Program-made: the position numbers and the translations under genes
The notes under the pieces: generated by a model
The model's input: only the letters and a program-made list of their open reading frames with translations
Databases searched by the model: none
What the model was told of the DNA's origin: nothing
NCBI GenBank assembly: GCA_040397235.1
Contig: JBBAWH010000006.1
Location: 8,854 to 72,853 of the forward strand
Origin: Candidatus Limnocylindrus sp.
GTDB taxonomy: Bacteria > Chloroflexota > Limnocylindria > Limnocylindrales > Limnocylindraceae
Reading direction: 5' to 3'
DNA: 64,000 nucleotides
Part shown: one piece after another, positions 22,163-52,093 of the stretch
Numbering within the stretch: position 1 is the stretch's first letter
Layout of the letters: the number at the start of each line of letters is the position of its first letter

Positions 22163-23428
22163 ATGCGCGAGCCAGATCACACCCGACGCGTCGTTATCAC
22201 CGGACTCGGCATCGTCTCGCCGATCGGCAACACCGTTGGCGACGTGTGGACGTCACTCACCGAAGGTCGTAGCGGCATCGCGCAGATCACCCACTGGGAT
22301 CCAACCCCCTACGCACCATACGTGGTCGCGGGCGAGGTGAAGAACTTTGACGTCACCCAGTTCCTCGACGCAAAGCAGATTCGACGCACCGGCCCTGAGA
22401 TCCATTGGGGCGTTGCCGCGGCGAAGGCCGCGCTGCTCGACTCGGGGCTCGAGATCACCGACGCGAACCGCGAAGAGGTCGGCGTGGTCTTCGGTTCAGG
22501 CGCTGGTGGGCAGGGGCTCTTCATTGAGAACCAGATGAGCTGGAAGGAGAAGGGGCCGCGCGCTGTTGCGCCAACCTTCATCGCCCACGGTCTGGTCGAC
22601 AGCACCTCGGGGATGATCGCTATTGAGTCCGGTGCCGTGGGGCACAACCTGGCGGTCGTCTCCGCCTGCGCCACCGGCACGCACGCCCTGGGCGAGGCGG
22701 CTGAGGCGATCAAGCGCGGCGACGTGACCGCCGTCATCGCCGGCTCCACCGAGAACCCCCTCATTGAGGTGGCGCACATCGGCTTCATGAACATGCGTGG
22801 CCTCGCCGGCCCCCGCGACGGCGAAGGGCCAGCATCGGCCTGCCGACCGTACGACGTGGATCGCGCCGGCTTCGTTCTCGGCGAAGGGGCGGGCGCCTTC
22901 ATCGTTGAGGATCTCGCCTCGGCTACGGCGCGCGGCGCCACGATCTACGCCGAGGTGGTCGGCTACGGCAGCTCCGCCGATGCGCACGACATGATCCAGC
23001 CGATCGAGGGTGGCGCCGGCTCAGCGCGCTCCATCAGGTGGGCGCTGCAGCGCGGCAAGATCGACCCGACCGAGATTGACCTGATCAATCCGCACGGCAC
23101 CAGCACGCCGGTGGGCGATGAGCGTGAGGCGCTCGCCTTCCACGCCTCCTTCGGGCCACGTGCCGCAGAGATTCCCATCTCAGCAACGAAGTCACTGACG
23201 GGACACCTGATGGGTGCCGCGGGCGCCGTGGAGGCAGTCTTCACGACCCTCTCGCTGCACCACCAGGTGATTCCAGGAACTCTGCATACGAAGAACGTCG
23301 ACCCCGCCTGCAACCTGAACGTCAACTGTGAAACACGCCCGGCCGAGATTCGTGCCGCGGTGAGCAACAACGTTGGGCTCGGTGGCCATAATGGCGCCAT
23401 CGTGTTGCGGCGCTGGACCGGAAAGTAG
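22163..23428 (+). CDS. fabF: Beta-ketoacyl-ACP synthase II paralog 1
   Basis: RRVVITGLG, SACATG, HGTST, KSLTGH; C-terminal NNVGLGGHN variant. Confidence 0.85.
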   Translation: MREPDHTRRVVITGLGIVSPIGNTVGDVWTSLTEGRSGIAQITHWDPTPYAPYVVAGEVKNFDVTQFLDAKQIRRTGPEIHWGVAAAKAALLDSGLEITDANREEVGVVFGSGAGGQGLFIENQMSWKEKGPRAVAPTFIAHGLVDSTSGMIAIESGAVGHNLAVVSACATGTHALGEAAEAIKRGDVTAVIAGSTENPLIEVAHIGFMNMRGLAGPRDGEGPASACRPYDVDRAGFVLGEGAGAFIVEDLASATARGATIYAEVVGYGSSADAHDMIQPIEGGAGSARSIRWALQRGKIDPTEIDLINPHGTSTPVGDEREALAFHASFGPRAAEIPISATKSLTGHLMGAAGAVEAVFTTLSLHHQVIPGTLHTKNVDPACNLNVNCETRPAEIRAAVSNNVGLGGHNGAIVLRRWTGK

Positions 23429-23436
23429 GAGGAGCC

Positions 23437-24714
23437 ATGAGCACCACCCCCGTACGAACCGACACGCAGCGCGCGGTCATCACCGGCTACGGCGCGATTA
23501 CGCCGATCGGCAATAGCGCTGGCGAATACTGGGAGAGCCTGATCGCAGGACGCTCAGGTGCGGGCCTCATCACCCACTTCGACGCCTCACCAAACGACGT
23601 GCGCATCGCCGCCGAGGTGAAGGGCTTCGATCCGCTCCTCACCATGGATATGAAGATGGCGCGTCGCATGAGCCGCTTCGTGCAGTTCGCGATCGCCGCC
23701 GCCACCGAAGCCATCGAACATGCCGGCCTCGCCGACATTGCCAGCTGGGAGCCAGAGCGCCGCGACCGCGTTGCCACGGTGATCAACACCGGCGGTGGTG
23801 GCATCGAGCAGGTCACCATCGGGAGCGACGCCTATCGCGAAAAGGGCGGCCGCTTCGTGAGCGCCTTCGCCATTCCTGCCCTTAGCCCGAGCATGGGCGC
23901 CTGCATGGTCAGCATGAAGTACGGCCTCACCGGCGCCGCGATCACCCAGGCCGCCGCCTGCGCCACGGGCGTGCTCGCCTTTCAAGATGCACTCCGCCTG
24001 ATCCGCAGCGGCGAGGCCGACGTGGTCGTCGCCGGTGGCGTCGAGGCACCACTCCTGCCGATGGCCTTCGCCGCCCTCAGCAACATGGGCGCCCTCAGCA
24101 AGCGCAACGACGACCCAACGCACGCCAGCCGACCGTTTGACAAGAACCGCGACGGCTTCGTCTTCGGCGAAGGCGGTGCCGTCTTCGTGGTCGAGTCGCT
24201 CGCCCACGCGAAGGCGCGCGGGGCCACGATTCGCGCCGAGCTGCTCGGTGCCGGTGCAACCGCCGACGCCTTCCACATCAGCGCCCCTGAGCCAACCGGC
24301 CGCGGCGCTGCAGGCTCCATGACCAAGGCGATCCTCGATGGCGGCGCCGTCATCGAAGACATCAGCTACATCGTGGCGCACGGCACGAGCACCCCACTCA
24401 ACGACCTCACCGAGACGAAGGCGATTAAGCGCGCCCTTGGTGATCATGCCTACAAGATTCCGATCAGCTCCCCAAAAAGCATGGTCGGCCACCTCTTGGG
24501 TGGCGCTGGCGCCGTTGCCGGACTCGCCGCCATCAAGGCGATCGAGACGGGCACCGTGCCACCCACGATCAACCTCGACACGCCAGACCCTGAGTGCGAC
24601 CTCGACTACGTGCCGCACACCGCGCGCACCAACCAGTCAGTCGACCGCGTGCTGATCAATGGCTTCGGCTTCGGTGGCCAGAACGCCTCGGCGCTCTTCG
24701 GAAAGCTTCGCTAG
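23437..24714 (+). CDS. fabF: Beta-ketoacyl-ACP synthase II paralog 2
   Basis: AACATG, SRPFDKNRDGFV, HGTST, KSMVGH, NGFGFGGQN. Confidence 0.9.
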   Translation: MSTTPVRTDTQRAVITGYGAITPIGNSAGEYWESLIAGRSGAGLITHFDASPNDVRIAAEVKGFDPLLTMDMKMARRMSRFVQFAIAAATEAIEHAGLADIASWEPERRDRVATVINTGGGGIEQVTIGSDAYREKGGRFVSAFAIPALSPSMGACMVSMKYGLTGAAITQAAACATGVLAFQDALRLIRSGEADVVVAGGVEAPLLPMAFAALSNMGALSKRNDDPTHASRPFDKNRDGFVFGEGGAVFVVESLAHAKARGATIRAELLGAGATADAFHISAPEPTGRGAAGSMTKAILDGGAVIEDISYIVAHGTSTPLNDLTETKAIKRALGDHAYKIPISSPKSMVGHLLGGAGAVAGLAAIKAIETGTVPPTINLDTPDPECDLDYVPHTARTNQSVDRVLINGFGFGGQNASALFGKLR

Positions 24715-24741
24715 CTCAGCGGCGCCCTACACGGACTGTTG

Positions 24742-25935
24742 TTATCGCCACGAGGAGAAGCTGCGAACTGATCCTGCAGACGGCAGTTTCAGCCACGGAT
24801 ATGGATGCAGCTCAGCAACCGATGTGAATTTTCGAAATGATGGAACGGGCGCATAGGTCACGGCTACCGGATGCTCTTGTGCAAACTGGTAGGGATCACC
24901 GATATACACCTCCACACCTCGCTGAGCACTGAGCTCGCCAAGCGTCTGCAGATAGAACCCAATTCGCCGCGCGCTCAGCTGTAGTTTCCTCAGCGCACCC
25001 TCATTGAAGACAAAGATCGCGGGCAAGGTCGGATTGGCCCGAAGCGCCGGATCGTGCATTCCGAGTGAGTCGATCGTCAGCAGCACATGCGTCGCAGGGC
25101 GTTTGATTCTGGGCGTGATCGGCCCAGTGGTGCGCTGCACGTTGGGATCGTTGTCCAGAAGCGGATCTCGCTCAAGCTGCTCTAGGTGTACCTCGCGCGG
25201 GAACTCCTCGATCGGGCAGTTGGCCTTGAGGGGACATCGTGAACAGATGCCTGGCGCTCGCTTGTCCACCTGCCACTTCGCAAAACCGTAGGGCTTGCCG
25301 GTGCCCGCACCGACCGTCCACTGCCATCCAAGCAGGTTGGCGGCCCTGGAGCCATCGATGAGCTCTTGGTGCATGCGCTCCTGGCCCGAGATCCAGCCAA
25401 CGCCATTTCGAACGGTCCAGTGGGATGCCAGCCACATGCGAGTCTGATTGACGAGCCAGCCATCCCCCTCGAGCTCAGAGACAACTTCGTCGATGCAGAG
25501 CATCTCCCGATTCCAGCCGTTCCCCTCGCCGCGCCAGTTCGCTGCAAAGCGCAGGTTTTCGAATAGGCGCACACCAATGCGGGCGTAGAGGTGACGCGCG
25601 TATTCCTGCCACCAGAGCTCGTCGCGGAATTTCTCACGATCTTTGGCTGGTGCACCCTGAACGGCGTCATACACCTGGCGCAGCGTGATCATGTTGTGAC
25701 GAATGTACGGAGAGAGCACGCTCGCGCCTCGATTCGCCCGCGGAAGCACTTGCGAGCGGCGGTCGGCATACCCCCTGATATCGAGCTGCTGAAGCGCCCT
25801 GTCGGCTGCCTGTTGCCCGCCGCTGATTGAGCTCAGGCCAAGCGTCCCTGAATAGAGGCCCTCGAAGTGTTCGGCCAGTAGTTTGAGGGGGTCCTCGGTT
25901 GCATCGATCTTCTTTAGGCCGAGGGGGGTCACCAT
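24742..25935 (-). CDS. Photolyase/cryptochrome family protein with inverted domain order (NewPHL-like)
   Basis: N-terminal FAD domain (SVLSPYIRH, ELWWQEY, GWLVNQTRM, LIDGSRAANLLGWQW); C-terminal antenna-like domain; start reset to ATG 25935. Confidence 0.82.
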   Translation of the reverse strand: MVTPLGLKKIDATEDPLKLLAEHFEGLYSGTLGLSSISGGQQAADRALQQLDIRGYADRRSQVLPRANRGASVLSPYIRHNMITLRQVYDAVQGAPAKDREKFRDELWWQEYARHLYARIGVRLFENLRFAANWRGEGNGWNREMLCIDEVVSELEGDGWLVNQTRMWLASHWTVRNGVGWISGQERMHQELIDGSRAANLLGWQWTVGAGTGKPYGFAKWQVDKRAPGICSRCPLKANCPIEEFPREVHLEQLERDPLLDNDPNVQRTTGPITPRIKRPATHVLLTIDSLGMHDPALRANPTLPAIFVFNEGALRKLQLSARRIGFYLQTLGELSAQRGVEVYIGDPYQFAQEHPVAVTYAPVPSFRKFTSVAELHPYPWLKLPSAGSVRSFSSWR

Positions 25936-26645
25936 GGGATTACGTTTCGCTCCTCCCACAGCACTCCAGTCAGCTTCTCTTGATCGGAAGCGCCCTCGAC
26001 GTTGAACGGTCGGGTTGCCAACCAGATCGCCGTATCGGCGCCCTCTTTGGCAGAGAGTGGTGCGCCTGGCCCGCCCATATCGGTCCGGGAGTGATTCGGG
26101 CAGACAGCGTCGATCAGGAAGCCGCGCTTGCCATGGAGCGTTTCATGCGCAAGGTTGCGCACGAGTGCATTGACCCCCGCCTTGCTCACACGGTACGGCA
26201 CCAATCCCCCTGCATTGCCTGGTCCTGACATGCGACCAAGACACGCCGAGAAGACAACCACTCGCCCCTGGCGCGCCTCAGCCATTGGCTTCGCAAGAAT
26301 ATTGAGTGCACAAAAGACAGAATCCAAATTGATCGACATCACCCGGCGCCACTCGTCGATATTCGTAGCGAAGGTTTTGGAAGACTTTTCACTCATCACC
26401 CCGTGCGCAAGGATCAGCGCATCAGGGGCACCACGCGTGGCGAGGATCGCAGTGAACGCCTTCTCGGTCGCCTCAAGATCCGCAAGGTCCACACTCTGGT
26501 ACTCACAGCCCAGGCTTTGGGCAGCTGCGGCCAAGCGCGGTTCATCCTTTGCGATCAGCAGCACCGTTTGGCCGCTCGCCCGCAGCGCCTTGGCGCACTC
26601 GAAACCAAGACCTCGAGATCCTCCGGTGATGAGGGTGTATCCCAC
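25929..26645 (-). CDS. Short-chain dehydrogenase/reductase
   Basis: TGGSRGLG, YRVSK (YxxxK), RTDMGG; GTG start downstream of AGGAGG. Confidence 0.9.
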   Translation of the reverse strand: MGYTLITGGSRGLGFECAKALRASGQTVLLIAKDEPRLAAAAQSLGCEYQSVDLADLEATEKAFTAILATRGAPDALILAHGVMSEKSSKTFATNIDEWRRVMSINLDSVFCALNILAKPMAEARQGRVVVFSACLGRMSGPGNAGGLVPYRVSKAGVNALVRNLAHETLHGKRGFLIDAVCPNHSRTDMGGPGAPLSAKEGADTAIWLATRPFNVEGASDQEKLTGVLWEERNVIPW

Positions 26646-26760
26646 TTTTGGAAAACCTCCTTGCCTTGACTCAGCTGCTCTCATGCAACTGCGGCTGGGA
26701 TGACAGTTTGCCGACCAAACTTGCGCCAATCAGTAGCCCGAGAAATCCTAGCAGGGGGTG

Positions 26761-26898
26761 CTAGTTCAACCGATCTCGCTCTAGTGGCAGCCTTCGCAGC
26801 CTCAGGGCATTCAGCACCACCGTCACGCTCGATCCGCCCATGGCGGCTGCGGCGAGTGCTGGATCGAGGCCGATCCTAAAGGCTGGGAGAACTAGGCC
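26761..26898 (-). pseudogene. Orphan duplicate of the copA 3' end with its own stop (…LPAFRIGLDPALAAAAMGGSSVTVVLNALRLRRLPLERDRLN*)
   Basis: 26786-26898 aligns without gaps to 30008-30120 (99/113 nt by hand count). Confidence 0.88.
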
Positions 26899-27527
26899 GC
26901 ACGCACCTCGATTGCCCAGTTAGGGCGAAAAGCCCAGAGCGCTGTACCCAACCCAAGCAATATCCACGTACACGCCCAGGCCCAACCGTCATTCGCCGGG
27001 AGACCGATCCAAGCCCATTCAGCCGCAGCGGATTCGTCAGCGAAACCAAAGACTCCAACCGCCAGGAGGTAGAGCGCCGGCGCAATTGAAGCGGTGCGCC
27101 ATCCAACAAAAAACCGGGCGACGAGTAGCCAGCCTAGGTAGGTCATAAGCGCTCGTGTGGCAATTAGATACGTATCGCCTACACCTGAAACATTGATTCC
27201 CGCAGACACCTGTGCACCGATGGCTCCAAGAGCCAAGAATGCACAAACGCTTGAGGCCACGAGTACAGCGTCATAGCGACGTATACGGCGCGCTGCTACG
27301 GACTCTTGCGCGGGAAGTCCGCTAGACAGCCCAAATCCTAAGGCGCTTGGCAACCCCAAAGCGATGAAGAGGGCGATCATCAGCGGTGCGCCAATAGGAC
27401 TCACCCGAATAGAGATTGCGCTGGCCGGGACTTGCAAAAGAAGTGCCGATCCGACGACCGAAAGAGTGATCAGATTAACTCGACGAATTTTTCGATACAG
27501 GGACACGCTATTGAACGCTGTAGTCAT
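26892..27527 (-). CDS. Multi-pass membrane protein (putative ABC permease 2)
   Basis: About six hydrophobic segments; last gene of the ABC operon; start uncertain. Confidence 0.65.
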   Translation of the reverse strand: MTTAFNSVSLYRKIRRVNLITLSVVGSALLLQVPASAISIRVSPIGAPLMIALFIALGLPSALGFGLSSGLPAQESVAARRIRRYDAVLVASSVCAFLALGAIGAQVSAGINVSGVGDTYLIATRALMTYLGWLLVARFFVGWRTASIAPALYLLAVGVFGFADESAAAEWAWIGLPANDGWAWACTWILLGLGTALWAFRPNWAIEVRAA

Positions 27528-28782
27528 CGGGCGACTGGCATTCAGCAACCAAGGATGTAAGCCGCTCCAACCAAGCAACGCGCGATGTGACTGGAGCGGA
27601 GCCAACGGCGCTGTATAGGTCCTTGATTGGAATGCCGCCAGATGCTGACGGATCTGCGATCAACCAGCCGAGATTCTCTTGCAGCATCGCTTCGGACCCA
27701 CCCATCGCAGTGAACCACCAGCCCCGCAACACATCAATTGAGGAACCGCTAAACCCTGAGTCTGAAGCCTCCGAACACGCTGGCCAGGGCGCCAGTCCCT
27801 GTGCGATTGACCAGCGAATTGAATCTGGATCTGACTTCCACAAGTCGAGCGTCAACGTATCCACTGATGTGGCGCTCGCGAGCTCTTCACTCCAGCGGCC
27901 TGGGATCGGCAATTCCTGACGAGCCAGTTCCACTATCACTGCAGTCAGCGTCGGCCGAAACAGTTGTGTGGGGCTGTCGTGCTCGGGCCACAGGCACAAC
28001 TCTGCTGCGCTCACTGTGCTGCACTTTAAGGCGGACTGATCGCGCGCAACCTCTGGGATCGGACCAACATTCCAGGCGAACGCGCTACTGACCATCACCC
28101 CTGTAACGAGCATTGCGGTTGCGACGATGCGTGACCATCGCATACCGAGAGCGCCGATCGCATAGAGCGCTATGACGATGATTGTCACATTCATGATCAG
28201 GCCTGCGAGCAGCGCCGCCGGGGCAATATCGGCACCGATCCGGCAGCAATCTCGGTACATGCCGCTGAGATGACGCAAGCATTCCACAGGGAGTGCTGGC
28301 ACAAAGGCGAACCAGAGGAATGGCGCCAAAAGCATGCCCGGTAGCGACACCGACATGGGGAGTCGTAGTCCTGCAAGGAAGCCCACCAGGCTCCACGCAC
28401 AGATTGCAACGAATCCAACGACAACCATGCGAATCTCAGGCAGCCCGGCCTGACCGTAGACAGAGGCAGCAACGACAGTCCCGAGTAGGAATACGGCTCC
28501 CAATAGAATTGAGGGGGTTACCGCAATGATGGTGATGTCGAACCTAGAACGTGTATGCGGCGCATCCCAAATGCCGCCGCGACGAAGCCGTGCAGCCTCC
28601 CATGCCGCAGTCATCGCAACAAATCCAACCAAGAACGCCATGGACGAGGTTGCACCCGCCGTCGCTGCGACACCGTAGTTGTTCGGGTAGATCGCCTTGG
28701 TCACATAGAGAATGGACAGAATCAGCGTAGGTATTGTCAGCCAAACTGCGGGCGAAATTCTGAGCATTGTGCGAAGACGCAC
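27508..28782 (-). CDS. Membrane protein (ABC permease-like) with Cys-containing C-terminal soluble domain
   Basis: Many N-terminal TM helices, RHLSG..RDCC, LCLWPEH; abuts the ATPase stop. Confidence 0.7.
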   Translation of the reverse strand: MRLRTMLRISPAVWLTIPTLILSILYVTKAIYPNNYGVAATAGATSSMAFLVGFVAMTAAWEAARLRRGGIWDAPHTRSRFDITIIAVTPSILLGAVFLLGTVVAASVYGQAGLPEIRMVVVGFVAICAWSLVGFLAGLRLPMSVSLPGMLLAPFLWFAFVPALPVECLRHLSGMYRDCCRIGADIAPAALLAGLIMNVTIIVIALYAIGALGMRWSRIVATAMLVTGVMVSSAFAWNVGPIPEVARDQSALKCSTVSAAELCLWPEHDSPTQLFRPTLTAVIVELARQELPIPGRWSEELASATSVDTLTLDLWKSDPDSIRWSIAQGLAPWPACSEASDSGFSGSSIDVLRGWWFTAMGGSEAMLQENLGWLIADPSASGGIPIKDLYSAVGSAPVTSRVAWLERLTSLVAECQSPDDYSVQ

Positions 28783-29529
28783 CTACTTACCGCCAGCGAT
28801 CAGAGCCAGAAATGCGGATTCAATCGGGCGCTCACTCCCCGCTGGGGCACGCGCCGAGAAGGCCTGCAAGGCGCCGTCAAAGGCGATGTTTCCTGCGTGA
28901 AGTACCGCGACATGCTCATAGGCCGTCGTGATTTCACCTGTGTCGTGTGTTGAAACCACAACCGTTCGGTCGGCGCCAATGTTTACCAGTAGTTCACGGA
29001 ACAGGGCTCGCTGCTCTGGATCGAGCCCAGAGGTGGGCTCATCGAGCAGCAACACTTCTGCGTCGTGGACCAGGGCACTGGCAAGGCCAACGCGCCGTTG
29101 CTGGCCTCCTGAAAGTTCACTTGCAGGCTGGTCAGCTAGATCCTGCAGCGCCACGCGTGCCAACGCTTCGGAGGCCCCGCGCCATGCATCGTCACGACTC
29201 ATACCCTTCAGCCAACCGGAATACGCCACCTGTTCTCGAACTGTGAGCCCCGGTACTGCTCGATATTGCTGCGGCATCCATGCCACGCGCGCTCGAAACT
29301 GGGTTCGCTGATCGCGGGAATCCAGCTCGTTGAGTGACACCTTGCCACTCCTCGGCATCAACGCCGTCGCGCCAAGGGACAAGAGCGTGCTCTTGCCTGC
29401 ACCATTGATGCCAAGCAGGGCGGTAACGCCTGTAGGCACGTGCCAAGTTAAGCGTTGTAGGACGGCTAGCTCTCCTTGATTCTTCCGTTTATAGCCAAAA
29501 CTAATCTCTCGAAACAGGAGCCCGCGCAT
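28783..29529 (-). CDS. ABC transporter ATP-binding protein
   Basis: GINGAGKST, LSGGQ, LLLDEPTSGLD, VSTH. Confidence 0.95.
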   Translation of the reverse strand: MRGLLFREISFGYKRKNQGELAVLQRLTWHVPTGVTALLGINGAGKSTLLSLGATALMPRSGKVSLNELDSRDQRTQFRARVAWMPQQYRAVPGLTVREQVAYSGWLKGMSRDDAWRGASEALARVALQDLADQPASELSGGQQRRVGLASALVHDAEVLLLDEPTSGLDPEQRALFRELLVNIGADRTVVVSTHDTGEITTAYEHVAVLHAGNIAFDGALQAFSARAPAGSERPIESAFLALIAGGK

Positions 29530-29909
29530 TAATACGAGATGAAATAGGTCAGGCTTACCGTCGCGCTATTGATCCAAGGGCTGTATTCGACGCTATAGTC
29601 ACCCACGGTGTTGCTCCAAGTTTTTGAGACATACGTTGACGATGAACTGCACGTGTAGGTTTTCTTACCAGTGCCAGTACTAGGGGAAAACAGCCAGTGC
29701 CTCATGACCTCGAACGTCAAAGTTGAAGCTGATGCTGAGCAATTTCGAATACTGAACGTAGTATTAGTCGCTTGGTATGTAATTGAATTCCAGCCTGGAC
29801 CCTGACTGGTAAGCGTGTTTGGGCCGATCGAACTAGCAATGGCGGCCGACGCTAGAGCTAGGCTGGCGACCCCACCCGAGATTAGCCCCAAGTACTTGTT
29901 GCGACGCAT
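29529..29909 (-). CDS. Small secreted Ser/Thr-rich protein (126 aa)
   Basis: Sec signal (MRRNK-hydrophobic-AIA/S), 2 Cys, GGAGG RBS, TAATG coupling to the ATPase. Confidence 0.75.
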   Translation of the reverse strand: MRRNKYLGLISGGVASLALASAAIASSIGPNTLTSQGPGWNSITYQATNTTFSIRNCSASASTLTFEVMRHWLFSPSTGTGKKTYTCSSSSTYVSKTWSNTVGDYSVEYSPWINSATVSLTYFISY

Positions 29910-29964
29910 TTTCTTACCTCCCCTTACTCAGAATCTGGTTCAGATGCGGAGAAGGTAGCAGGTT

Positions 29965-32313
29965 TTAACGCGGATTCCTAACAGGATTCAGGTTGTTGCG
30001 TTCTAACGGCAGCCTTCGCAGCCTCAGAGCATTCAGCACCACCGTCACGCTCGATCCACCCATGGCGGCGGCGGCGAGTGCTGGGTCAAGTCCGATGCCG
30101 AAAGTTGGGAGCAAGAGGCCGGCGGCGAGTGGCACCAGGATGATGTTGTAACCAAAGGCCCAACCAAGGTTCTGCTTGATGATGCGCGTGGTGGCGCGCG
30201 CAAGATCGACGAGGAGTGGCACACCGCGCGGGTCTGCGCCGCTCAAGGTTGCAGCCGATGCATCGATCGCGATCTCGGTTCCGCCACCCATGGAGATACC
30301 TACGTCAGCAGCGGCGAGTGCTGGCGCGTCGTTCACGCCATCTCCCACCATCGCTACGGGCCCACTGCTGCTGCGTCGAATCTCGGCGATCGCCTCGCCC
30401 TTACCGCCAGGAAGAATGCCGCCGCGGGCGCGCTCTGATGGAATGCTGAGGTCGTGGGCGATGGCGTTCACCACCTCTTGGCGATCGCCGCTGATGATCC
30501 ACGACTCAATGCCGCGTGCGCTCAGTGCACGGATCGCGGCGGCGCTCTCTGGGCGAACCGTATCGGCAAGGCTGAGCGCGCCGGCAGATTCGCCGTTGAT
30601 TGAGATAAAGAGCGGCGTGCGTCCCGCAGCCGCCTCTCCTGATGCCCACCTGGTGAGCTCGGGGTTGATCGTGGCGGTGAAGGCCTCGGTGCCGATGCGC
30701 ACCGCTGCACCATCGACGGTTGCGCTTACGCCATGCCCGGCGTGCATGGCGAAGTCGGTGGCGCTTGCCGTGACAGCGCCTGCGGCACGCACGATCGCGC
30801 GGGCGAGTGGATGTTCCGATGGGTTCTCGACCGCGGCGGCGATCTGTAGGAGTCGATCGGTGTTGCCGGCGAGCGGGCCGTCGGCGAGGGCGATACGGCC
30901 GACGAGGGCGTGCTGGCCGAGGGTGAGGGTGCCGGTCTTATCCCAGACCACGGCGCGCAGCTTCCCTGCCGCCTCGAGGATGGCGGCGTCGCGCACGAGG
31001 ATTCCCGCCTCGGCGCCGCGGCCGGTGCCGGCGATCACGGCGGTGGGGGTGGCGAGGCCCATTGCGCAGGGGCAGGCAACCACGAGCACGGCGATGGCGG
31101 TGGCCACGGCGCGCACCAGGCGCGGCTCCGCCCCGAGCAGGTACCAGCCAACGAAGGTCGCCACGGCGATCAGCAGGATGGCCGGCACGAATACCTCTGA
31201 GATGCGGTCGGCGAGGCGGGCGATCGCAGGCTTCGATCCCTGCGCGCGCTCGACCATGGCGACGATGCGGGCCAGCGTGGTGTTCGCGCCAACCTGTGTG
31301 GCGCGCATCACAATTGCGGCGTCGGTAAGCAGCGTGCCTGCGGCGAGTCTGCTCCCTGGACCGCGCTCTACTGGGAGCGACTCACCGGTGATCGCCGACT
31401 CATCAACGGCGGCGCGTCCACTCACGATGATGCCGTCTACAGGGATGCGCCCACCAGGACGAATGCGCAGCAGGTCACCAGCGATGATCTTGTTCACGGC
31501 GATGGTGGTTGCGGTTGGGGCGTCGGCGGTTGCAAGCAGCTCTGCCTCGCGCGGTTGAAGCGCCAGGATCCCGCGCACCGCGCTGGTTGTCTGCTCCTTG
31601 GCGCGCGCCTCCATCCAGCGACCGAGTGCGACAAAACCGAGAATGAGTGCCGCGGCGTCCCACGTTGCGTGCGCCGGAATGCCAACGCGCATCAGCTGCG
31701 AATGGAAGAGGGTAATCGCCACCGACCAGCTCCATGCCGCCGTGGTGCCGAGACTGACGAGCGTCTCCATGGTGAGTGAACCGTGACGAAGTGCGCGCAG
31801 TGCGCGCGAGTGGAAGCGCCAGCCAACGGCGAACTGAATGATGGTGGAGGGCACGATCAGGATCCAGTTGACACGCTCCATGCTAATAAAGAGCCACGGC
31901 TGCAACATCAGTACCATCGCGCCGAAGCCGAAGATCGTGGCGATGATTCCGTCACGGAGAAGTCCGCGCGTCTCTTTGGTGCGCGCGGCGACGAGCTCGG
32001 CATCGAGTGCGGCGCGCGCGTCCTGTGCATCGGCGTCCCCTTCACGTCCGGCGAGGACGAGTGCGGCGGCGGGAACCTCGTATCCAGCTGCGCTGATCAC
32101 CGCAGCGAGATCGGCAACGCCCGTTGCCTCTGGCGCGTACTGAATGGTGGCCATCGAGGTCGCAAGGTTCACGCTCGCCCCGCTCACGCCGTCGGCCTTC
32201 TTCAGGAATCGCTCCACGCGGTTCACGCACGAGGCGCAGGTCATCCCAGTGACGGGGAGGGCAATCTCCGCCACGGGGGTGGTTGGCGCCGCAGGAACAG
32301 GCTCAGTCAACAT
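29965..32313 (-). CDS. copA: Cu(I)-translocating P1B-type ATPase
   Basis: GMTCASC, TGES, CPC, DKTGT, SEHP, GDGVND, YN and MxxSS Cu(I) motifs. Confidence 0.93.
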   Translation of the reverse strand: MLTEPVPAAPTTPVAEIALPVTGMTCASCVNRVERFLKKADGVSGASVNLATSMATIQYAPEATGVADLAAVISAAGYEVPAAALVLAGREGDADAQDARAALDAELVAARTKETRGLLRDGIIATIFGFGAMVLMLQPWLFISMERVNWILIVPSTIIQFAVGWRFHSRALRALRHGSLTMETLVSLGTTAAWSWSVAITLFHSQLMRVGIPAHATWDAAALILGFVALGRWMEARAKEQTTSAVRGILALQPREAELLATADAPTATTIAVNKIIAGDLLRIRPGGRIPVDGIIVSGRAAVDESAITGESLPVERGPGSRLAAGTLLTDAAIVMRATQVGANTTLARIVAMVERAQGSKPAIARLADRISEVFVPAILLIAVATFVGWYLLGAEPRLVRAVATAIAVLVVACPCAMGLATPTAVIAGTGRGAEAGILVRDAAILEAAGKLRAVVWDKTGTLTLGQHALVGRIALADGPLAGNTDRLLQIAAAVENPSEHPLARAIVRAAGAVTASATDFAMHAGHGVSATVDGAAVRIGTEAFTATINPELTRWASGEAAAGRTPLFISINGESAGALSLADTVRPESAAAIRALSARGIESWIISGDRQEVVNAIAHDLSIPSERARGGILPGGKGEAIAEIRRSSSGPVAMVGDGVNDAPALAAADVGISMGGGTEIAIDASAATLSGADPRGVPLLVDLARATTRIIKQNLGWAFGYNIILVPLAAGLLLPTFGIGLDPALAAAAMGGSSVTVVLNALRLRRLPLERNNLNPVRNPR
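30008..30120. repeat. Direct-repeat copy within the functional copA 3' end
   Basis: Matches 26786-26898; the first 77 nt differ at only 3 positions. Confidence 0.9.
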
Positions 32314-32328
32314 ACTCAGGGGGAGTAT
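32312..32328. promoter_or_regulatory. CsoR-type operator candidate ATACTC-AGGGG-GAGTAT
   Basis: ATAC/GTAT inverted repeat around a G-tract, overlapping the copA -10 (TATACT) and start codon. Confidence 0.65.
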
Positions 32329-32371
32329 ACGCCTCATCTGGCCGATAAGTGCCTCGGGCTAGGCTGCGCGC

Positions 32372-37802: not shown

Positions 37803-38459
37803 TTAGCGCCCAGACCGGGCGCGTCCACGCGAGACTACCGCATCTGGGTAGGCGACCCGTAGGGCGGCCAGGAGGCGCTCCTCGTCACGGCGGGAGAGGA
37901 AGTGCCAGAGCAGATAGAGGGTGACGCCGATGGTCCAGAGCACCCCAGCGACAAGCACGCCCGCGTGCATCCCCCCGGCCCCCACCTGGGCGAGGCTCTC
38001 GTTGAGTCCCGCCCCCCAGAGGAGCGCCGCGGCAATGGAGTAGCCGATCGTCATGACGCTGCCGTAGCCGCTCAGCCGACCAAACGAGAGGAACGAGAGC
38101 TTCGGTGCGTCGGGTTCATAGAAGTAGGATGCCTCCAGCCGATGGACTGCCAGCACGTCACGACCGAGTCGCGCGTTGATAGTGCGCTCCAAAAATTCTG
38201 CATGTCGTCGCGCAAACACCGTGTAGTAGAAGGTGTAGCCCGCCTCGAGAAAAGCGAACGGAACCACAAAGAGGAGAGTGACGGCAACGGGCGCGTCAAC
38301 GCTGAGGCCAGAGAGCGCAAGGAGTACCAGGCTCACGACACCCCAGATGGTGATCTGTCGAAAGAAGAGTTCCGAATACGCGCCGAGCATGCCGCGCATG
38401 CGGTCGAGCTGCGCCTCAAGGATGCGGAGCTCTTCTGCTCCCCCACGTCGTGCCACCAT
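37803..38459 (-). CDS. Hypothetical membrane protein
   Basis: About four TM helices; strong AAGGAGGAG RBS. Confidence 0.7.
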   Translation of the reverse strand: MVARRGGAEELRILEAQLDRMRGMLGAYSELFFRQITIWGVVSLVLLALSGLSVDAPVAVTLLFVVPFAFLEAGYTFYYTVFARRHAEFLERTINARLGRDVLAVHRLEASYFYEPDAPKLSFLSFGRLSGYGSVMTIGYSIAAALLWGAGLNESLAQVGAGGMHAGVLVAGVLWTIGVTLYLLWHFLSRRDEERLLAALRVAYPDAVVSRGRARSGR

Positions 38460-38500
38460 CGTCTCCTCCTTAACTAATTGCTTGCGGGTATATTCGCATG

Positions 38501-38890
38501 ATGAAGCGATTGACCGTGCTGCTCCTGACCCTCGTTGCCGCCACGAGCCTCGCGGCCTGCGGCACCGCCATCGGGCCTACTGGCACCCCGGCGTACACGG
38601 TCACCCGCAGCTGGTCGAACGGCATGGAGGAGCAGGCGGTCGTCTATGCCGATGGCCGGACCGTCATGACCCACGAACAGCACTCCGAAAGAGTTACCCT
38701 GCCAGCCGATCAGATGGCCACACTTGCCGCAGCGGCCGCTCTCGAGATTCCTGCGGGCGCCAGCAGCGACGACCCGATCATTGGGGTCACGATTGGCGCC
38801 GGCGCACCGATTCGACCAGCGGGGCTTACGAAGGATTCCCTTCCTGAACTATTGAATCGGCTCCTCGATTCGCACACCCTGAATCCGTAA
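38501..38890 (+). CDS. Putative lipoprotein
   Basis: MKR-hydrophobic-LAAC lipobox; TATATT 6 nt upstream of ATG 38501. Confidence 0.7.
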   Translation: MKRLTVLLLTLVAATSLAACGTAIGPTGTPAYTVTRSWSNGMEEQAVVYADGRTVMTHEQHSERVTLPADQMATLAAAAALEIPAGASSDDPIIGVTIGAGAPIRPAGLTKDSLPELLNRLLDSHTLNP

Positions 38891-38896
38891 GGGCTG

Positions 38897-39757
38897 CTAG
38901 CGCGCGGTTGCCTCGATCAGCACCAGGTGCCGCCCCAGCACTTCGGCGCGTCGATCCGCAAAACGTGAGCCGAGCATCTCCCCCGCCGCCTGCTCCAACG
39001 TCGCCGGGTCAAAGTTCGGCGGGGCGAGATCGATCACCGCAATGCGCCCACCTGGCGCGAGCCATGCGTGAGCCACATCGATCATGCGGGTGCGCGGCTC
39101 CGCGGCGAGCTGACTCAACACGAATGGCACGACGACGAGGCCGGCGGGCGCCCCCTCTGGCCCCTCATCAATTGCGCGCGGATGCAGATGTGCGGTGAGA
39201 CCGTGGGCGATCAACCTGCGACGGGCGCGCTCCAGGCGATCTTCGCGCGCGTCGTAGGCGCTCGTCTCGCCGCGCGACGCGAGCAGCACCGTCCAGAACC
39301 CGATCCCTGCACCGAGCTCCACGATACGACCCTCATACGGGAGTGAATCAAGCCAGAGCACGGCGCGGTCGAGTTCGCCCTGCCAGGTTGCACCACCGAG
39401 TGGTCCGCGATCGTATGGGGCACGATTCAAGTACCACGCCTCAAGTTCGTCAGGATGCTGTGGTGGTGGCAAGAGGCCAAGTCGCGCTGGAACGCCACTC
39501 TCACCAGCATCGGGTGCGCCGCTAACTGCAGGCGCTATTGGTGTTGGTGTCGATGCGAGTGGAATGCCGACGGGTGGTTGCGCACCTTCGGCACGTCGGC
39601 GCAAGCCCTCCTTCAGCTTTGCTTTTAAATATGGCTGGCCGGGTGCTCGCTCAAGACAGGCGGCACAGAGAAGGGTCCATGCCGAGAGGTCCTCAAGCGT
39701 TGTTGCAGATACGGGGAGACCGCACCAAGAGCAGGAGAATGGTGCGACGGCGCTCAA
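38897..39757 (-). CDS. Class I SAM methyltransferase with N-terminal CxxC...CxxC domain
   Basis: IVELGAGIG, LAPGGRI; CSWC and CAAC at the N-terminus. Confidence 0.75.
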   Translation of the reverse strand: MSAVAPFSCSWCGLPVSATTLEDLSAWTLLCAACLERAPGQPYLKAKLKEGLRRRAEGAQPPVGIPLASTPTPIAPAVSGAPDAGESGVPARLGLLPPPQHPDELEAWYLNRAPYDRGPLGGATWQGELDRAVLWLDSLPYEGRIVELGAGIGFWTVLLASRGETSAYDAREDRLERARRRLIAHGLTAHLHPRAIDEGPEGAPAGLVVVPFVLSQLAAEPRTRMIDVAHAWLAPGGRIAVIDLAPPNFDPATLEQAAGEMLGSRFADRRAEVLGRHLVLIEATAR

Positions 39758-41590: not shown

Positions 41591-42676
41591 ATGGAGTTTC
41601 TCCGCTCCCTTCTTGAGTGGGTGATCTCACTCCTTGGGCCATTCGTCTCCCCCGACTGGGGCGCACTCATCAAGCTCATCCCACTCGGCGTCCTTCTTTT
41701 GGTCGTTGCCTTCTACGGCTGGGTCTTCTGGCGCTTCCGCCGCGCCGGGCCTCGTCGCATCGGCATGCCGATCCGCAAGCCACAGGTGCCATCAGGCGTT
41801 CACCTGCCTGGGCCAAGCCTCGCACCCTTCCTGATCTCGGCAGCATCGGCCGCACTCTTCTTCTCCGTGGCACTCGGCGGCCCAGCACTCGCCGTCGCGG
41901 GACTCCTCTTCGTCTTGGCGCTCGTTGCCTGGGGCCGCGAAGCGGTCCGCGAGTACGACGCACTCGGCGCAGGCTCAGCGATGGCGCTGCGCGCTGACGA
42001 TGCCGCAGCAACAACAGCGCCGAACGGCCCACCAGAGGGTGTTCATCTGCCGCCGCCATCGCTCCTGCCACTCCTCGTGAGCGCCGGCGCTGCCGTGATG
42101 CTCTTCGGCGTTGCGGTTGGTCTCGAGTTCGCACTTCTTGGCACGCTCATGACGGCGCTCGCGCTGATTGGCTGGCTCCTTGATGCAGGGCGCGAATATC
42201 GCGCCACCGCCGAGGCCGATACAACTGGCCACCTGGTCAATCCGACGCCACGCAAAATGCCAACGGTGGCCATCGCACTCTTCAGCATGCTCTTCCTCTT
42301 CTTCGCCGGCTCGCAGGCTGGCGTGATCGGCGGGAGCGGCGCAAGCCCGTCACCGAGCGGCGAACCCGTTGCCTGCGCCGAGAGTGGCACCGCGACCGTC
42401 ACGATGTGCGCTGAGCTCATAGCCTTTAATAGCGAATCAATCACGGTGCCGGCTAGTGCGCCATTTACCATCCGCTTCGTAAACTACGACGCAGGAATCC
42501 CGCACAATGTCGCGATCCACGAGGATACGGGCACCGGCCCAGAGATCTACCTCGGCGAGATCTTCAACGGTGCCGATGAGCGCACCTACGACGTGCCCGC
42601 CCTCACCGCCGGGAAGACTTATGTCTACATCTGCACCGTCCACCCGAACATGCTTGGGGCGATCGTCCTGCAGTGA
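41591..42676 (+). CDS. Membrane protein with two GVHLPxPS-TM-TM repeats and a C-terminal type-1 copper cupredoxin
   Basis: Repeats GVHLPGPSLAP and GVHLPPPSLLP; PHNV...CTVHPNM. Confidence 0.78.
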   Translation: MEFLRSLLEWVISLLGPFVSPDWGALIKLIPLGVLLLVVAFYGWVFWRFRRAGPRRIGMPIRKPQVPSGVHLPGPSLAPFLISAASAALFFSVALGGPALAVAGLLFVLALVAWGREAVREYDALGAGSAMALRADDAAATTAPNGPPEGVHLPPPSLLPLLVSAGAAVMLFGVAVGLEFALLGTLMTALALIGWLLDAGREYRATAEADTTGHLVNPTPRKMPTVAIALFSMLFLFFAGSQAGVIGGSGASPSPSGEPVACAESGTATVTMCAELIAFNSESITVPASAPFTIRFVNYDAGIPHNVAIHEDTGTGPEIYLGEIFNGADERTYDVPALTAGKTYVYICTVHPNMLGAIVLQ

Positions 42677-43194
42677 CCAGCCTGGCGCGCATCCGTCGCG
42701 TCGCAGTCGCACTCCTCGCCGCTAGCCTGATCGCCGCCTGCGGCGGCCCCACCGCCAGCAGCGACGACCTTCTGGGCCGAACGATGCGGATCGGCGAGGC
42801 GCACCCCCTCACTGACCCGACCGCTACGTTCACCTCGTGGCCAGAGGTTGCGGGTGGCAACCAGCGCATCCTGTTGAACTTCTGGGCGAGCTGGTGCATC
42901 CCCTGCCGCGATGAGATTCCGCTCCTCTTCGACTACTCCGCCAGCTTCGCCCCTGGCGCCACAGTGCTCGGCGTTCTCTATAGAGATTCGATTGGTCCGG
43001 CAGCAGCCACCGCGGCGGAGCTCGGCGCAACCTGGGTGACGCTGATCGATGCCGACGGCGCTATCGCTGCGCAGGTGCCGGTAAATGCCGCGCCGCTGAC
43101 CCTGCTCCTTGACGCAAGCGGCGTGGTGCTCGACTACCGCGTCGGTCCGTTCACCAGCGTTGCAGAGATCGCCGAATTCGCCGACGGCCCATAG
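42673..43194 (+). CDS. TlpA/ResA-like thiol-disulfide oxidoreductase lipoprotein
   Basis: NFWASWCIPC; IAAC lipobox. Confidence 0.85.
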   Translation: MTSLARIRRVAVALLAASLIAACGGPTASSDDLLGRTMRIGEAHPLTDPTATFTSWPEVAGGNQRILLNFWASWCIPCRDEIPLLFDYSASFAPGATVLGVLYRDSIGPAAATAAELGATWVTLIDADGAIAAQVPVNAAPLTLLLDASGVVLDYRVGPFTSVAEIAEFADGP

Positions 43195-43228
43195 GCGGGC
43201 GTGCCCCGATACGGGGTTGAAGTCCTCT

Positions 43229-43303
43229 TGGTTGCGGGGGATGGATTCGAACCACCGACCTTCGGGTTATGAGCCCGACGAGCTGCCACTGCTCCACCCC
43301 GCT
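43229..43303 (-). tRNA. tRNA-fMet (CAT)
   Basis: Anticodon arm TCGGG-CTCATAA-CCCGA, TTCGAAT T-loop, unpaired 1:72, encoded CCA. Confidence 0.95.
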
Positions 43304-43346
43304 CGCGAAGTATCGGCAGCGCGGGGCAAACCGTCAAATGCGCAGC

Positions 43347-43676
43347 TTATTCCCCGTACGTAACGGGGAGCCCTGCGGCCTCCCAGTCGGAAATGCCGCC
43401 CGCGAGGTTCGCAACGTTCGTGCGGCCAGCGGTGCGCAGTGCCAGCGCCGCCTGACCTGAACGACCACCCGAGCGGCATTGCATGATCAGCGCCCGACCT
43501 GCGGGGATCTCGTCTTGGCGTGCCACAAACTGCGAGAGCGGAATCAGCAGTGCACCAGGGATGCGCACCTCGTTCCACTCCGACTCTTCACGAACATCGA
43601 TCATCAACGGGGCATCGGGTCCTTCGAGGAGCGCCGCCGCCTCTGCGGGGGCGAGTGTCAGCGGGAGACCGCTCAC
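43347..43676 (-). CDS. Rhodanese-like protein
   Basis: IDVRE..EW, IPGA, CRSGGRS, NLAGGI..W. Confidence 0.9.
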   Translation of the reverse strand: MSGLPLTLAPAEAAALLEGPDAPLMIDVREESEWNEVRIPGALLIPLSQFVARQDEIPAGRALIMQCRSGGRSGQAALALRTAGRTNVANLAGGISDWEAAGLPVTYGE

Positions 43677-44173
43677 TAGCGCTCGGATTCGGCGGATGCG
43701 GCGAGGCGGCGCAGGAACTCCGCGACCGGCAGGCGCGAGCCGTATCCGTCGCCCATGTTGTGCGCGAAGAGCACCTCGTCACCATCCCCCTCCTCCCAGC
43801 AGAGCAGGAACTGGTGGCCGAAGGCGATCGCTGGAAAGTCGACGAGGCCGCGATCAATATCGCGCAGCTCAACGCCCCGGCCGGTGACCCGATCGACGCT
43901 CGCCTGCATCTGATCTACCGCGGCCCGAATGCGCATCTCAACCACCGAGCTACTGGCTAGTTTGTCGCGAAGGGCAGGGTCGAGGTCAGCCGGCTGCAAC
44001 TGATTCTGGTCGGCGCCACCTGGCAGGGCGCCCATGCGCTCGAGGCGGCGGAGGCGCAACAGGTCATCCTTCATGCGCTCGAGTTCGATGCGCTGGTCAC
44101 GGAGGAGGTTGATGATCGGGCGCAGCCCGGCCAGCTCCTTCGTCGCCGCATCAATGGTCCATGAGCGCCTCAT
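43676..44173 (-). CDS. DUF2203-like protein
   Basis: W/F-T..A N-terminus, GVELRDIDRGLVDFP, LLCW..G, H....G..SRLP. Confidence 0.7.
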   Translation of the reverse strand: MRRSWTIDAATKELAGLRPIINLLRDQRIELERMKDDLLRLRRLERMGALPGGADQNQLQPADLDPALRDKLASSSVVEMRIRAAVDQMQASVDRVTGRGVELRDIDRGLVDFPAIAFGHQFLLCWEEGDGDEVLFAHNMGDGYGSRLPVAEFLRRLAASAESER

Positions 44174-44231
44174 GCCCCTATTCTCCCACGCCCAGGGCTC
44201 ATAATGCGGCCCGCCGTGGGAGAATCTGCGC

Positions 44232-44306
44232 GGGCCGGTAGCTCAGCGGTAGAGCAGGGGTCTTTTAAACCCTTGGTCGCGGGTTCGAACCCCGCTCGGC
44301 TCACCA
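44232..44306 (+). tRNA. tRNA-Lys (TTT)
   Basis: GGGCCGGTAGCTCAG..., GGGGT-CTTTTAA-ACCCT, GGTTCGAA, CCA end. Confidence 0.95.
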
Positions 44307-44310
44307 ACTC

Positions 44311-44997
44311 CTATGCGTTCCCCCGTCGCCGAAGCAGGCGCTCGGCGCCCAGATAGAGGAGCGCCACGACGTACCCGCCAATGATGACGCCGCCCATCAA
44401 CATCAGGACCGATGCGTATCCATACTTGATGACGTTGAAGAACCCATACGGATAGACCGAGGCAATCGCGCCGTGCAGCAGCGTATAGGCCAGATACGCG
44501 ATTGGGATGATGAAGACGGCGAACGTATCGCCGAGCGGGAATCGGCCGCGCGGTCCTGCAATGGCCCAGACGAGGATCGTCAGCACGGGGGTGATGTAGT
44601 GCTGCAACAGATTGGTCACCGCGTACCAACTCTGCGGGTTTGCTGAGCCTGCGAGGAGCAGGTGGTAGAGGACTATCGTCATCGTGATCATCAGTAGTCC
44701 AGTGTTCCGAAGGCGGTTGAAGATCCGACCCGTGCGTTCCGGGTTGAGGTAGAGCGCGGTCAGGGTGATTGCCACCACAATGTTGGACCAGGTGGTGAAG
44801 TATCCGTGGGAGTCATACACGCGACCGATAGCTCCAGCGAGTCCTTCTGCGTGGCCGCCAAACAAGTTGCTGCCTGGGTCGTATGGGGTGCTCCGCGGCA
44901 CTAGGCCGAAAATGTTCACTACCTGCACCATGCCGTAGCCGAGCCACGCGATGAACGCATTGATGCCGTAGAGGCGCTTGGCGGTTGCTGTGTTCAT
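44311..44997 (-). CDS. Pr6Pr/FAR-17a-like membrane protein
   Basis: YFTTWSN, LYHLLL, QHYITP, YPYGFFN. Confidence 0.75.
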   Translation of the reverse strand: MNTATAKRLYGINAFIAWLGYGMVQVVNIFGLVPRSTPYDPGSNLFGGHAEGLAGAIGRVYDSHGYFTTWSNIVVAITLTALYLNPERTGRIFNRLRNTGLLMITMTIVLYHLLLAGSANPQSWYAVTNLLQHYITPVLTILVWAIAGPRGRFPLGDTFAVFIIPIAYLAYTLLHGAIASVYPYGFFNVIKYGYASVLMLMGGVIIGGYVVALLYLGAERLLRRRGNA

Positions 44998-45060
44998 GTT
45001 TCCTCCCACTTCACACCCGGGCAGGTGTTTCGCGGAAGTATACGGCGGTAGCGAGTCGAA

Positions 45061-51607: not shown

Positions 51608-52093
51608 TTATCCCCTCTGGCTGGTGATCTCCGCAAGCACCTCTGCCGCATGCCCGGTCGGGGTCACGCTCTCCCAGACCTTCGCCACCCGCCCCTCGGG
51701 GTTGATGAGGAAGGTGACCCGATGGGTGCTCATGAAGCTCTTCCCCATCATCTGCTTCTCGCCCCAGACCCCGTAGGTCTCGGCGACCTGATGGTCGAGG
51801 TCGGAGAGGATCGGGAAGTTCAGCGAGAACTTGTCGCGGAAGGCCGCCTTGCTCGACTGGTCGTCAGGGCTCACACCCCAGACGAGTGCGCCCGCCGCCT
51901 GCAGGGCTGTCTCCGAATCGCGGAACTCGCAAGCCTCAATGGTGCAGCCAGGGGTGTCATCCTTCGGATAGAAGTAGATGACCAGCCACTTACTACGCGC
52001 AGCAAGGGTGCTGTGCTCTCCGCCCGTCGCATCGCGCAACGTGAAGGCTGGGGCTTCGCTACCGGCGGGTGGGAACGCCTTAAATGGACTCAT
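51608..52093 (-). CDS. bcp: Peroxiredoxin BCP/PrxQ
   Basis: YFYPKDDTPGCTIEAC. Confidence 0.93.
   Translation of the reverse strand: MSPFKAFPPAGSEAPAFTLRDATGGEHSTLAARSKWLVIYFYPKDDTPGCTIEACEFRDSETALQAAGALVWGVSPDDQSSKAAFRDKFSLNFPILSDLDHQVAETYGVWGEKQMMGKSFMSTHRVTFLINPEGRVAKVWESVTPTGHAAEVLAEITSQRG

Follow-up and report, generated by a model that had tools for sequence, protein, structure and literature searches.

Stacking of two gene cassettes between fabF and copA in Candidatus Limnocylindrus, probably by homology-facilitated illegitimate recombination

The stretch of Candidatus Limnocylindrus sp. DNA analyzed here (the window, 64,000 nucleotides of contig JBBAWH010000006.1) contains a small islet between two conserved genes: fabF, which encodes a beta-ketoacyl-ACP synthase, and copA, which encodes a P1B-type copper ATPase. 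Within this islet, two gene cassettes lie end to end, one composed of a photolyase-like gene and a short-chain dehydrogenase (SDR) gene, and the other of an ATP-binding cassette (ABC) transporter module. They are separated by an orphan copy of the 3' end of copA, and all genes of the region are on the minus strand except fabF, which alone is on the plus strand. The arrangement is best explained by homology-facilitated illegitimate recombination (HFIR), by which two alternative haplotypes of the same interval were probably stacked, and the orphan would then be a scar of that event and not an attachment (att) site. An earlier, sequence-only reading had proposed that the ABC cassette was inserted without an integrase at the end of copA, carrying a foreign copA tail with it. 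Integrase-less, homology-driven movement at a hotspot of several cassettes is upheld by the present analysis, while copA as the landing site and the cassette-borne tail are not.

The window lies on contig C6 of a genome (G000) of 1.18 Mb in 15 contigs, estimated to be 93.5% complete. For comparison, 42 genomes of the genus were searched, G000 included, and the loci of 30 relatives were mapped with the window proteins. The fabF gene and the copA-ogt-M24 genes are conserved throughout the genus as convergent flanks, and the cargo between them varies, as is characteristic of replacement-type islands. In its simplest form, the interval consists of a lone 108-aa YCII-like gene separating fabF and copA. 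This and other contents lacking both cassettes (MFS, luciferase-like, UbiA-PAS, or an SDR homologue) account for 15 of the 30 loci, all with both flanks on the contig, and a further four contigs retain copA only. Across the relatives, the alternative cargos comprise MFS transporters, luciferase-like monooxygenases, a UbiA-PAS protein, RCC1-repeat proteins, DUF2200 and DUF1905 proteins, and a lumazine-binding protein. The photolyase-SDR cassette is found beside copA at four loci: it is the sole cargo in G045 and G044, is cut by the contig end in G009, and is stacked with RCC1 genes in G022. Five loci hold the ABC cassette only, one (G057) with the small gene sm126 and a long copA ending, and four (G019, G001, G013, and G018) without sm126. 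The remaining two, from G050 and G051, are stacked as in the window. Thus, the ABC cassette occurs in eight of the 42 genomes (G000, G050, G051, G057, G019, G001, G018, and G013), and the whole stacked stretch in three (G000, G050, and G051, the last at 96% identity).

The relatives supply both the empty sites and the alternative cargo for which the sequence-only reading had suggested a search. In the window a direct repeat flanks the cargo, and the empty site is seen in G022 and G009, in which the photolyase-SDR cassette runs straight onto a copA with a single tail. The earlier suggestion that this hotspot had also received the photolyase-SDR block as a cassette is likewise borne out, by its solitary occurrence in G045 and G044 and by its position beside a second copA fragment in G022. 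What must be abandoned is copA as a specific landing site, for the hotspot is the whole fabF-copA interval, and orphan fragments vary in length and derive also from fabF and from the YCII gene. The interval is a small flexible genomic islet, a cargo hotspot of a streamlined freshwater Chloroflexota genus, and fabF, the conserved left flank beside the variable interval in the relatives, serves as a homology anchor. No description of this hotspot was found in the partly covered literature on Limnocylindrus, and the term 'genomic island' is absent from PMC13212565.

Metagenome loci extend this picture. Fifteen contain mem237, the last gene of the ABC cassette; in nine of these, mem237 adjoins the YCII gene with no orphan, two have an internally deleted cassette, one is stacked like the window, one is the locus L108 described below, and two are without context. 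In the two decayed cassettes (L109:230-991 and L110:233-993), residue 185 of the ABC protein is fused to residue 168 of mem237, and perm424 has been lost; the remnant nonetheless still lies between copA and the YCII gene. At L105:2187-2820, the ABC ATPase matches in two pieces (residues 1-32 and 69-248) and may be broken. In G051, copA carries a 155-bp tandem duplication with perfect 55-nt repeats (L050:10707-10916), which splits the open reading frame (ORF) into 711 and 128 aa and represents either a real disruption or an assembly artefact.

A repeat search of the window matched positions 26777-26899 to 29999-30121, the latter within copA, over 123 nt at 86% identity. The ungapped core of this repeat, 26786-26898 against 30008-30120, is identical at 99 of 113 positions. 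When compared codon by codon, the copies differ synonymously in 11 of 14 differing codons; the first 89 nt of the core hold six differences, every one synonymous, and the three non-synonymous codons (L to V, T to A, and G to R) all lie within the 25 nt adjoining the upstream junction. The orphan ends in ...LPLERDRLN and its own stop, and the live protein in ...LPLERNNLNPVRNPR. Beyond the orphan stop, similarity runs on into the CCTGCTAGGAT motif, given an indel of approximately 8 nt. Codon-level alignment and translation therefore confirm what had been noted from the letters alone, namely the ungapped repeat, its six synonymous differences, and the distinct stops and C-termini. The lower GC content of the cargo is also confirmed: it amounts to 0.55-0.62, dropping to 0.48-0.50 across 29400-29999, as compared to 0.64-0.73 for copA. 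The hairpin noted at the orphan end is indeed present, on the minus strand, yet at -8.1 kcal/mol (z 0.52) it is no more stable than shuffled sequence. A role for it as a terminator or recombination site was accordingly rejected: no terminator- or promoter-like site is found there, and the motif is not enriched.

The two window copies differ at 17 positions, and at 12 of these the base in the orphan is also found in the live copA alleles of other genomes, leaving five private changes. Since most of its differences are polymorphisms of live alleles, the orphan is a captured allele and not a local duplicate. This supports the view that the two tails are different alleles that evolved as coding sequence, and it tells against a tandem duplication of the copA end in situ followed by decay, which, together with an assembly chimera (considered below), is given almost no credence.

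Each tail can moreover be linked to one of the cassettes. The stop, hairpin, and SDR leader that follow the orphan are collinear with the live copA-SDR junction of the photolyase-SDR genomes G009, G022, G045, and G044. Conversely, the live tail, ...NNLNPVRNPR, with its extended ending and the sm126 leader, is collinear with G057, which has no orphan, and in the metagenome loci L100 and L104, again without an orphan, a full-length copA ending stands beside sm126. As this ending accompanies sm126 in G057, L100, and L104, the long C-terminus belongs to the sm126 form of the cassette. In cassette-only genomes without sm126, the copA ending is ...ERERLS (G019 and G001) or ...ERDQLS (G013); a related motif comes next, and then a leader resembling that of sm126. 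From the alignment, the long ending may have arisen through small indels that erased the old stop. Two of the earlier proposals need changing. The ...ERDRLN ending, previously thought to have been left behind as an alternative tail by the insertion, is the form of the photolyase-SDR haplotypes, and the sm126-less relatives end similarly short. Nor is there support, as stated, for the ABC cassette having brought a foreign copA tail; the live ...NNLNPVRNPR ending goes with the sm126-ABC haplotype. The ABC cassette need not be the newcomer: addition of a photolyase-SDR-tail block to an ABC genome fits equally well, and mechanistically better.

The point at which the two haplotypes meet is a 6-nt microhomology, CGGCCT in the minus-strand reading. 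In cassette-only genomes, mem237 ends in ...GCGGCCTAG, i.e. ...GCGGC(C/T)TAG, and abuts the YCII stop or, in G019, fabF directly, while the copA alleles read ...GCCGGCCT(G/C)... at the corresponding position. The join falls on the mem237 stop codon. An identical junction is present in G050, in G051, and in the metagenome contig L097, showing that the event happened once. The L097 orphan bears several non-synonymous changes, as expected of a dead fragment. HFIR typically leaves one illegitimate joint, placed at a short microhomology, while the opposite side is homologous; this feature is found here, at a junction of single origin. The stacked genomes have no YCII gene, which G057 does possess and of which L108 keeps the last 29 codons; this may reflect a loss of recipient DNA between the anchor and the joint.

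Under the HFIR explanation, the exchange of cassettes would ordinarily proceed through RecA-type homologous recombination within the convergent flank genes, both of which are conserved. The window arrangement would have arisen once, when two haplotypes were joined rather than exchanged: the left part would be a photolyase-SDR haplotype including the last 123 nt of its own copA, and the right part an ABC-cassette haplotype, mem237-perm424-ABC-sm126-copA, beginning at the mem237 stop. One end of the incoming DNA would have been anchored by homology and the other joined illegitimately at CGGCCT, such that the orphan tail would be the broken end of one haplotype's flank gene. In the preferred direction, fabF would have provided the anchor for a fabF-photolyase-SDR-copA-tail donor, with the other end joined into a recipient that carried the ABC cassette and so lost its short spacer or YCII gene. 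This direction requires only an insertion and the loss of a short recipient stretch, which is the usual outcome of HFIR; the shortened YCII gene of L108 agrees with it. An ABC donor anchored in copA is less favored, as either its joint would have to lie within the homologous tail again or a circular intermediate would be needed. The fabF-anchored donor is thus tentatively ranked first and the copA-anchored donor second, with the rest of the weight on other readings.

A Campbell-type insertion of the ABC cassette, which corresponds to the sequence-only reading, would produce the same order by another route. A fragment from the mem237 stop to approximately 123 nt inside copA would be circularized at CGGCCT and then integrated by a single RecA crossover in the copA tail of a photolyase-SDR genome, duplicating the tail and displacing the native end. 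This route predicts exactly the observed order and a direct repeat of two different alleles, and the microhomology does sit at both ends of the presumed fragment. Furthermore, the fabF side of G051 and its copA beyond the tail are both nearest to the photolyase-SDR genome G045, at 94-99%, although the same pattern would equally result from a later import of the whole stacked islet, as between G000 and G050. Yet the route demands a double-stranded circular intermediate, and no Ku was found in the 93.5% complete genome. By itself, it also leaves the orphans derived from the fabF tail and the YCII gene unexplained. Finally, no tail-to-tail joint, as would be left by excision, was present in four public sequencing runs (X1, X3, X4, and X5), which is weak evidence since only contigs were available. 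A Campbell-type insertion is consequently regarded as unlikely, though it is the likeliest of the rivals to HFIR.

Further stacks, formed independently of the one in the window, bear on whether a site-specific recombinase could be responsible. In G022, the order is fabF, an RCC1 gene, a 71-nt copy of the fabF 3' end with its downstream sequence, a second RCC1 gene, a copA fragment of approximately 300 nt, photolyase-SDR, and copA. This copA fragment is open, has its own stop, lies beside the photolyase stop, and is 78-82% identical to alleles of the close clade. The two RCC1-repeat proteins (392 and 414 aa; L014:1285-3928) form tandem units, each following a fabF 3' end, and the 5' parts of their genes are 89% identical over 249 nt. 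In L108, the order is mem237, the last 29 YCII codons, a copA tail of approximately 58 nt with a 1-nt deletion, a hairpin remnant, SDR, and fabF. The orphan copA fragments hence measure 123 nt in the window, approximately 300 nt in G022, and approximately 58 nt in L108, and three genes (copA, fabF, and YCII) supply fragments. Varying lengths and three source genes do not fit one fixed att site, and the independent stacks argue against it.

Site-specific integration in trans, by a recombinase of the tyrosine or serine type that recognizes an attB within the 3' end of copA and an attP in a tail copy on the cassette, in the manner of tRNA-targeting additive islands or tycheposon-like satellites, would account for a cargo flanked by a direct repeat of a gene 3' end and for the empty sites in relatives. 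Two tyrosine-recombinase genes exist in the genome, which may be XerC and XerD; they are the only ones found in it, and both are on contig C1 (C1:97119-97646 and C1:124864-125409, in open frames of 326 and 362 aa), not on C6. However, the copies produced by independent events share no common crossover core, and orphans of fabF and YCII occur as well. In G019, G057, G018, and nine of the 15 metagenome loci, the outer end of the cassette abuts fabF or YCII without any copA repeat, and the motif following the stop is unique in the window and has 16 matches in the genome against 14 for a reversed control. Nor was a recombinase found among the cargo genes tested. Pfam identified no integrase, transposase, or recombinase family among the window genes or in any of 22 cargo ORFs from 12 relatives; the latter were taken from 89 listed ORFs of at least 60 aa as likely genes by eye, at least 95 aa long and unmatched by window proteins, several of similar size being left out. 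The islet is thus integrase-less, as first described. A serine recombinase was also looked for in the genome (93.5% complete) and not found, and an integron is not indicated, there being no integrase near the interval and no repeated element in the boundary motif. Site-specific integration is therefore judged very unlikely, well below the Campbell-type route. Homologues of ComEC and DprA are present in the genome, and the DNA required for HFIR may have entered as linear fragments, by natural transformation or a similar route.

All of the sources are metagenome assemblies, which raises the question as to whether the stacked order is a chimera of co-occurring strains, and contigs of one public run (X4) are indeed interrupted within the repeat, at 26806-26835 and 30029-30058. 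In the Logan contigs of X1, the sequence is identical to the window, and X1 may be the source of the window DNA. X3 belongs to a different study, and a single contig of 37 kb there covers 24600-30400, differing from the window at 65 positions. The sequence-only reading had itself held that an assembly artefact would undo it; instead, the same architecture and junction are seen in G000, G050, G051, L097, and the X3 contig. In addition, both parent haplotypes lack the junction sequence, and an assembler would not be misled by a match as short as 6 nt. As with duplication in situ, a chimera is thus barely credible. In X5, a minor contig (depth 6.9 as compared to approximately 40) joins 24704 to 26892, giving a cassette-only form like that of G019 and indicating that this form coexists with the stacked one.

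Once formed, the stacked islet would have passed from lineage to lineage in one piece, through homologous recombination of the ordinary kind. A tract shared with G050 (Table 1) extends from the end of the KAS gene upstream of fabF to a point within the final 0.77 kb of copA, taking in fabF, the orphan, and the two cassettes, and so ends inside flank genes in the manner of a replacement island. Its 99.0% identity amid flanks of 87.2% shows that the stacked islet moved recently between diverged lineages by homologous recombination, as the homology-driven movement foreseen in the sequence-only reading would require. Of the 76 mismatches to G050 in the tract, nine lie in 24414-24591 and 45 in 25402-26271, the other 22 being spread over approximately 6.5 kb; smaller patches were superimposed on the tract later. 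By sliding-window identity, G051 is a patchy mosaic. Elsewhere in the window, 38001-39000, 42001-47000, and 52001-54000 are only 76-82% identical to G050, against a background of approximately 87-90%, and may be variable or fast-evolving.

Several observations nevertheless weigh against HFIR, or limit the certainty with which it can be proposed. The microhomology evidence consists of one junction of single origin, and the 2-4 nt that follow CGGCCT match neither parent exactly. Classical HFIR was defined in the laboratory transformation of other phyla, and many bacteria that are not known to be transformable also possess ComEC and DprA. All genomes compared are metagenome-assembled, and the public runs were compared as Logan contigs and not as raw reads. 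With regard to direction, the identity windows of G000 and G051 against 14-15 relatives are mosaic, with no consistently nearest relative on either side; the nearest allele of each tail and the placement of the G022 orphan were similarly mosaic or equidistant.

Table 1. Positions in the window of the shared tract, the islet genes, and the junction elements.
Feature	Position	Strand	Evidence and remarks
Recombination tract shared with G050	23177..30738		99.0% over 7,562 nt inside; 87.2% over 54,118 aligned nt outside
fabF (beta-ketoacyl-ACP synthase II)	23437..24714	+	NCBIfam TIGR03150, 501.5 bits, above cut-off
Photolyase/cryptochrome-like protein, gene 1 of the photolyase-SDR (P) cassette	24742..25959	-	Pfam FAD_binding_7, E 1.6e-8; NCBIfam matches weak, far under cut-off
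SDR, gene 2 of the P cassette	25929..26729	-	Pfam adh_short, E 1.5e-29
Hairpin CTAGCA-CCCCC-TGCTAG	26745-26764	-	weak
Orphan copA 3' fragment	26761..26899	-	about 45 codons and own stop; repeat spans about 41 codons; natively linked to the P cassette
mem237, integral membrane protein, last gene of the ABC cassette	26892..27605	-	no Pfam or NCBIfam match; always after perm424 in relatives
Illegitimate junction, mem237 end/copA	26894..26899	-	6-nt microhomology CGGCCT (minus-strand reading)
perm424, membrane protein	27508..28782	-	weak DUF7224 match, Pfam PF23866, E 3.6e-5, below its cut-off
ABC transporter ATP-binding protein	28783..29529	-	Pfam ABC_tran, E 9.4e-31; NCBIfam matches generic, all below cut-off
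sm126, small predicted secreted protein	29529..29909	-	low-GC segment; no family match; restricted to the C+ cassette form
Live copA (P1B-type copper ATPase), conserved right flank	29965..32337	-	Pfam E1-E2_ATPase PF00122, Hydrolase PF00702, HMA PF00403; TIGR01511 527.8 bits and TIGR01525, both above cut-offs

The genes of the interval are listed in Table 1. The domains of CopA are those of a copper ATPase, with an E1-E2 ATPase and a HAD domain and an N-terminal heavy-metal-associated domain. As listed, the SDR ORF begins at a TTG, but its first 25 residues have no counterpart in the alignments with relatives; translation probably starts near 26645 instead, where an AAGGAGG motif precedes. The sm126 gene is present in G057, G050, G051, L100, and L104. 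Three close homologues of its product were found, and its look-alikes in the Atlas, which are weak, are small secreted actinobacterial proteins. Homologues of perm424 number 465 representatives at E<=1e-3. The cargo of the ABC cassette is an ABC module of the export type. Polymorphic toxin or immunity cargo is not indicated, as the cargo consists of the ABC module and the small secreted protein in one cassette and the SDR and the photolyase-like protein in the other, and PADLOC returned only generic P-loop matches of the ABC ATPase for the cargo. In Nanopelagicales metagenome-assembled genomes (loci L076, 5072-7802, and L077), an ABC ATPase, a DUF7224-like membrane protein, and a small membrane protein occur in the same order. 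The proteins of this module are 28-41% identical to those of the window, the perm424 homologues 28-29%, which suggests that an ABC-perm-membrane module is shared among freshwater plankton.

The phenomenon described here is a new example of known processes. HFIR is reported from Acinetobacter, Streptococcus pneumoniae, and Pseudomonas stutzeri, where it accompanies natural transformation, and from conjugation in Escherichia coli (PMC3240628, PMC5361080). The islet resembles these cases in having a single homologous anchor and a single illegitimate joint at a short, GC-rich microhomology, in the addition of foreign DNA, perhaps with loss of recipient DNA beside the anchor (compare the truncated YCII gene of L108), and in the lack of a dedicated recombinase. 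It differs in that it is only a natural footprint in uncultivated Chloroflexota, and in that donor and recipient would be two alleles of one locus, such that part of the flank gene from the other side is carried at the illegitimate end. The primary papers on HFIR are reportedly those of de Vries and Wackernagel (2002), Prudhomme (2002), and Meier and Wackernagel (2003). To our knowledge, HFIR is mostly known from laboratory transformation, and natural footprints for which both parental haplotypes have been sampled are uncommon.

[quoted passage not shown] Such 3'-end stacking would be the closest published parallel. Unlike in the T6SS, Rhs, and CDI arrays, a copper ATPase with a housekeeping role is the conserved gene in this case, no toxin-immunity pair makes up the cargo, and an internal gene as well as the two flanks has given rise to orphans. 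In streamlined aquatic bacteria, flexible genomic islands of the additive type are attributed to mobile elements and have repeats of fixed length (20 nt of tRNA-Lys in PMC10872708). The same paper describes replacement-type islands, with which the islet shares conserved syntenic flanks, unrelated cargo, and exchange by homologous recombination, and additive islands, with which it shares stacked cassettes parted by repeats of a flank gene's 3' end. In contrast to the additive islands, the repeat here is a protein-gene tail of variable length, and there is no mobile-element gene. The islet is thus exchanged like a replacement island and grown like an additive one, without mobile-element genes.

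It may be, although this is a doubtful extension of the model, that the islet grows additively as a rule, by illegitimate capture of the rival haplotype, and that the retained tails serve as portable homology for the RecA-dependent deletion, re-insertion, and transfer of cassettes. If true, it would constitute an integrase-free counterpart of the additive island or the integron, and this in a genome that has hardly any mobile elements. Transfer of the stacked unit has already taken place between lineages with no more than 87% identity. Where the 3' end of a gene is duplicated around a cargo, caution is called for, as such a repeat is insufficient evidence for an integrative element. A single genus of lake bacteria, which are abundant, uncultivated, and genome-reduced, displays the parents (photolyase-SDR only and ABC only), the product, and its later spread, and together these provide a case in which such genomes can add genes, not merely swap them, without mobile elements.

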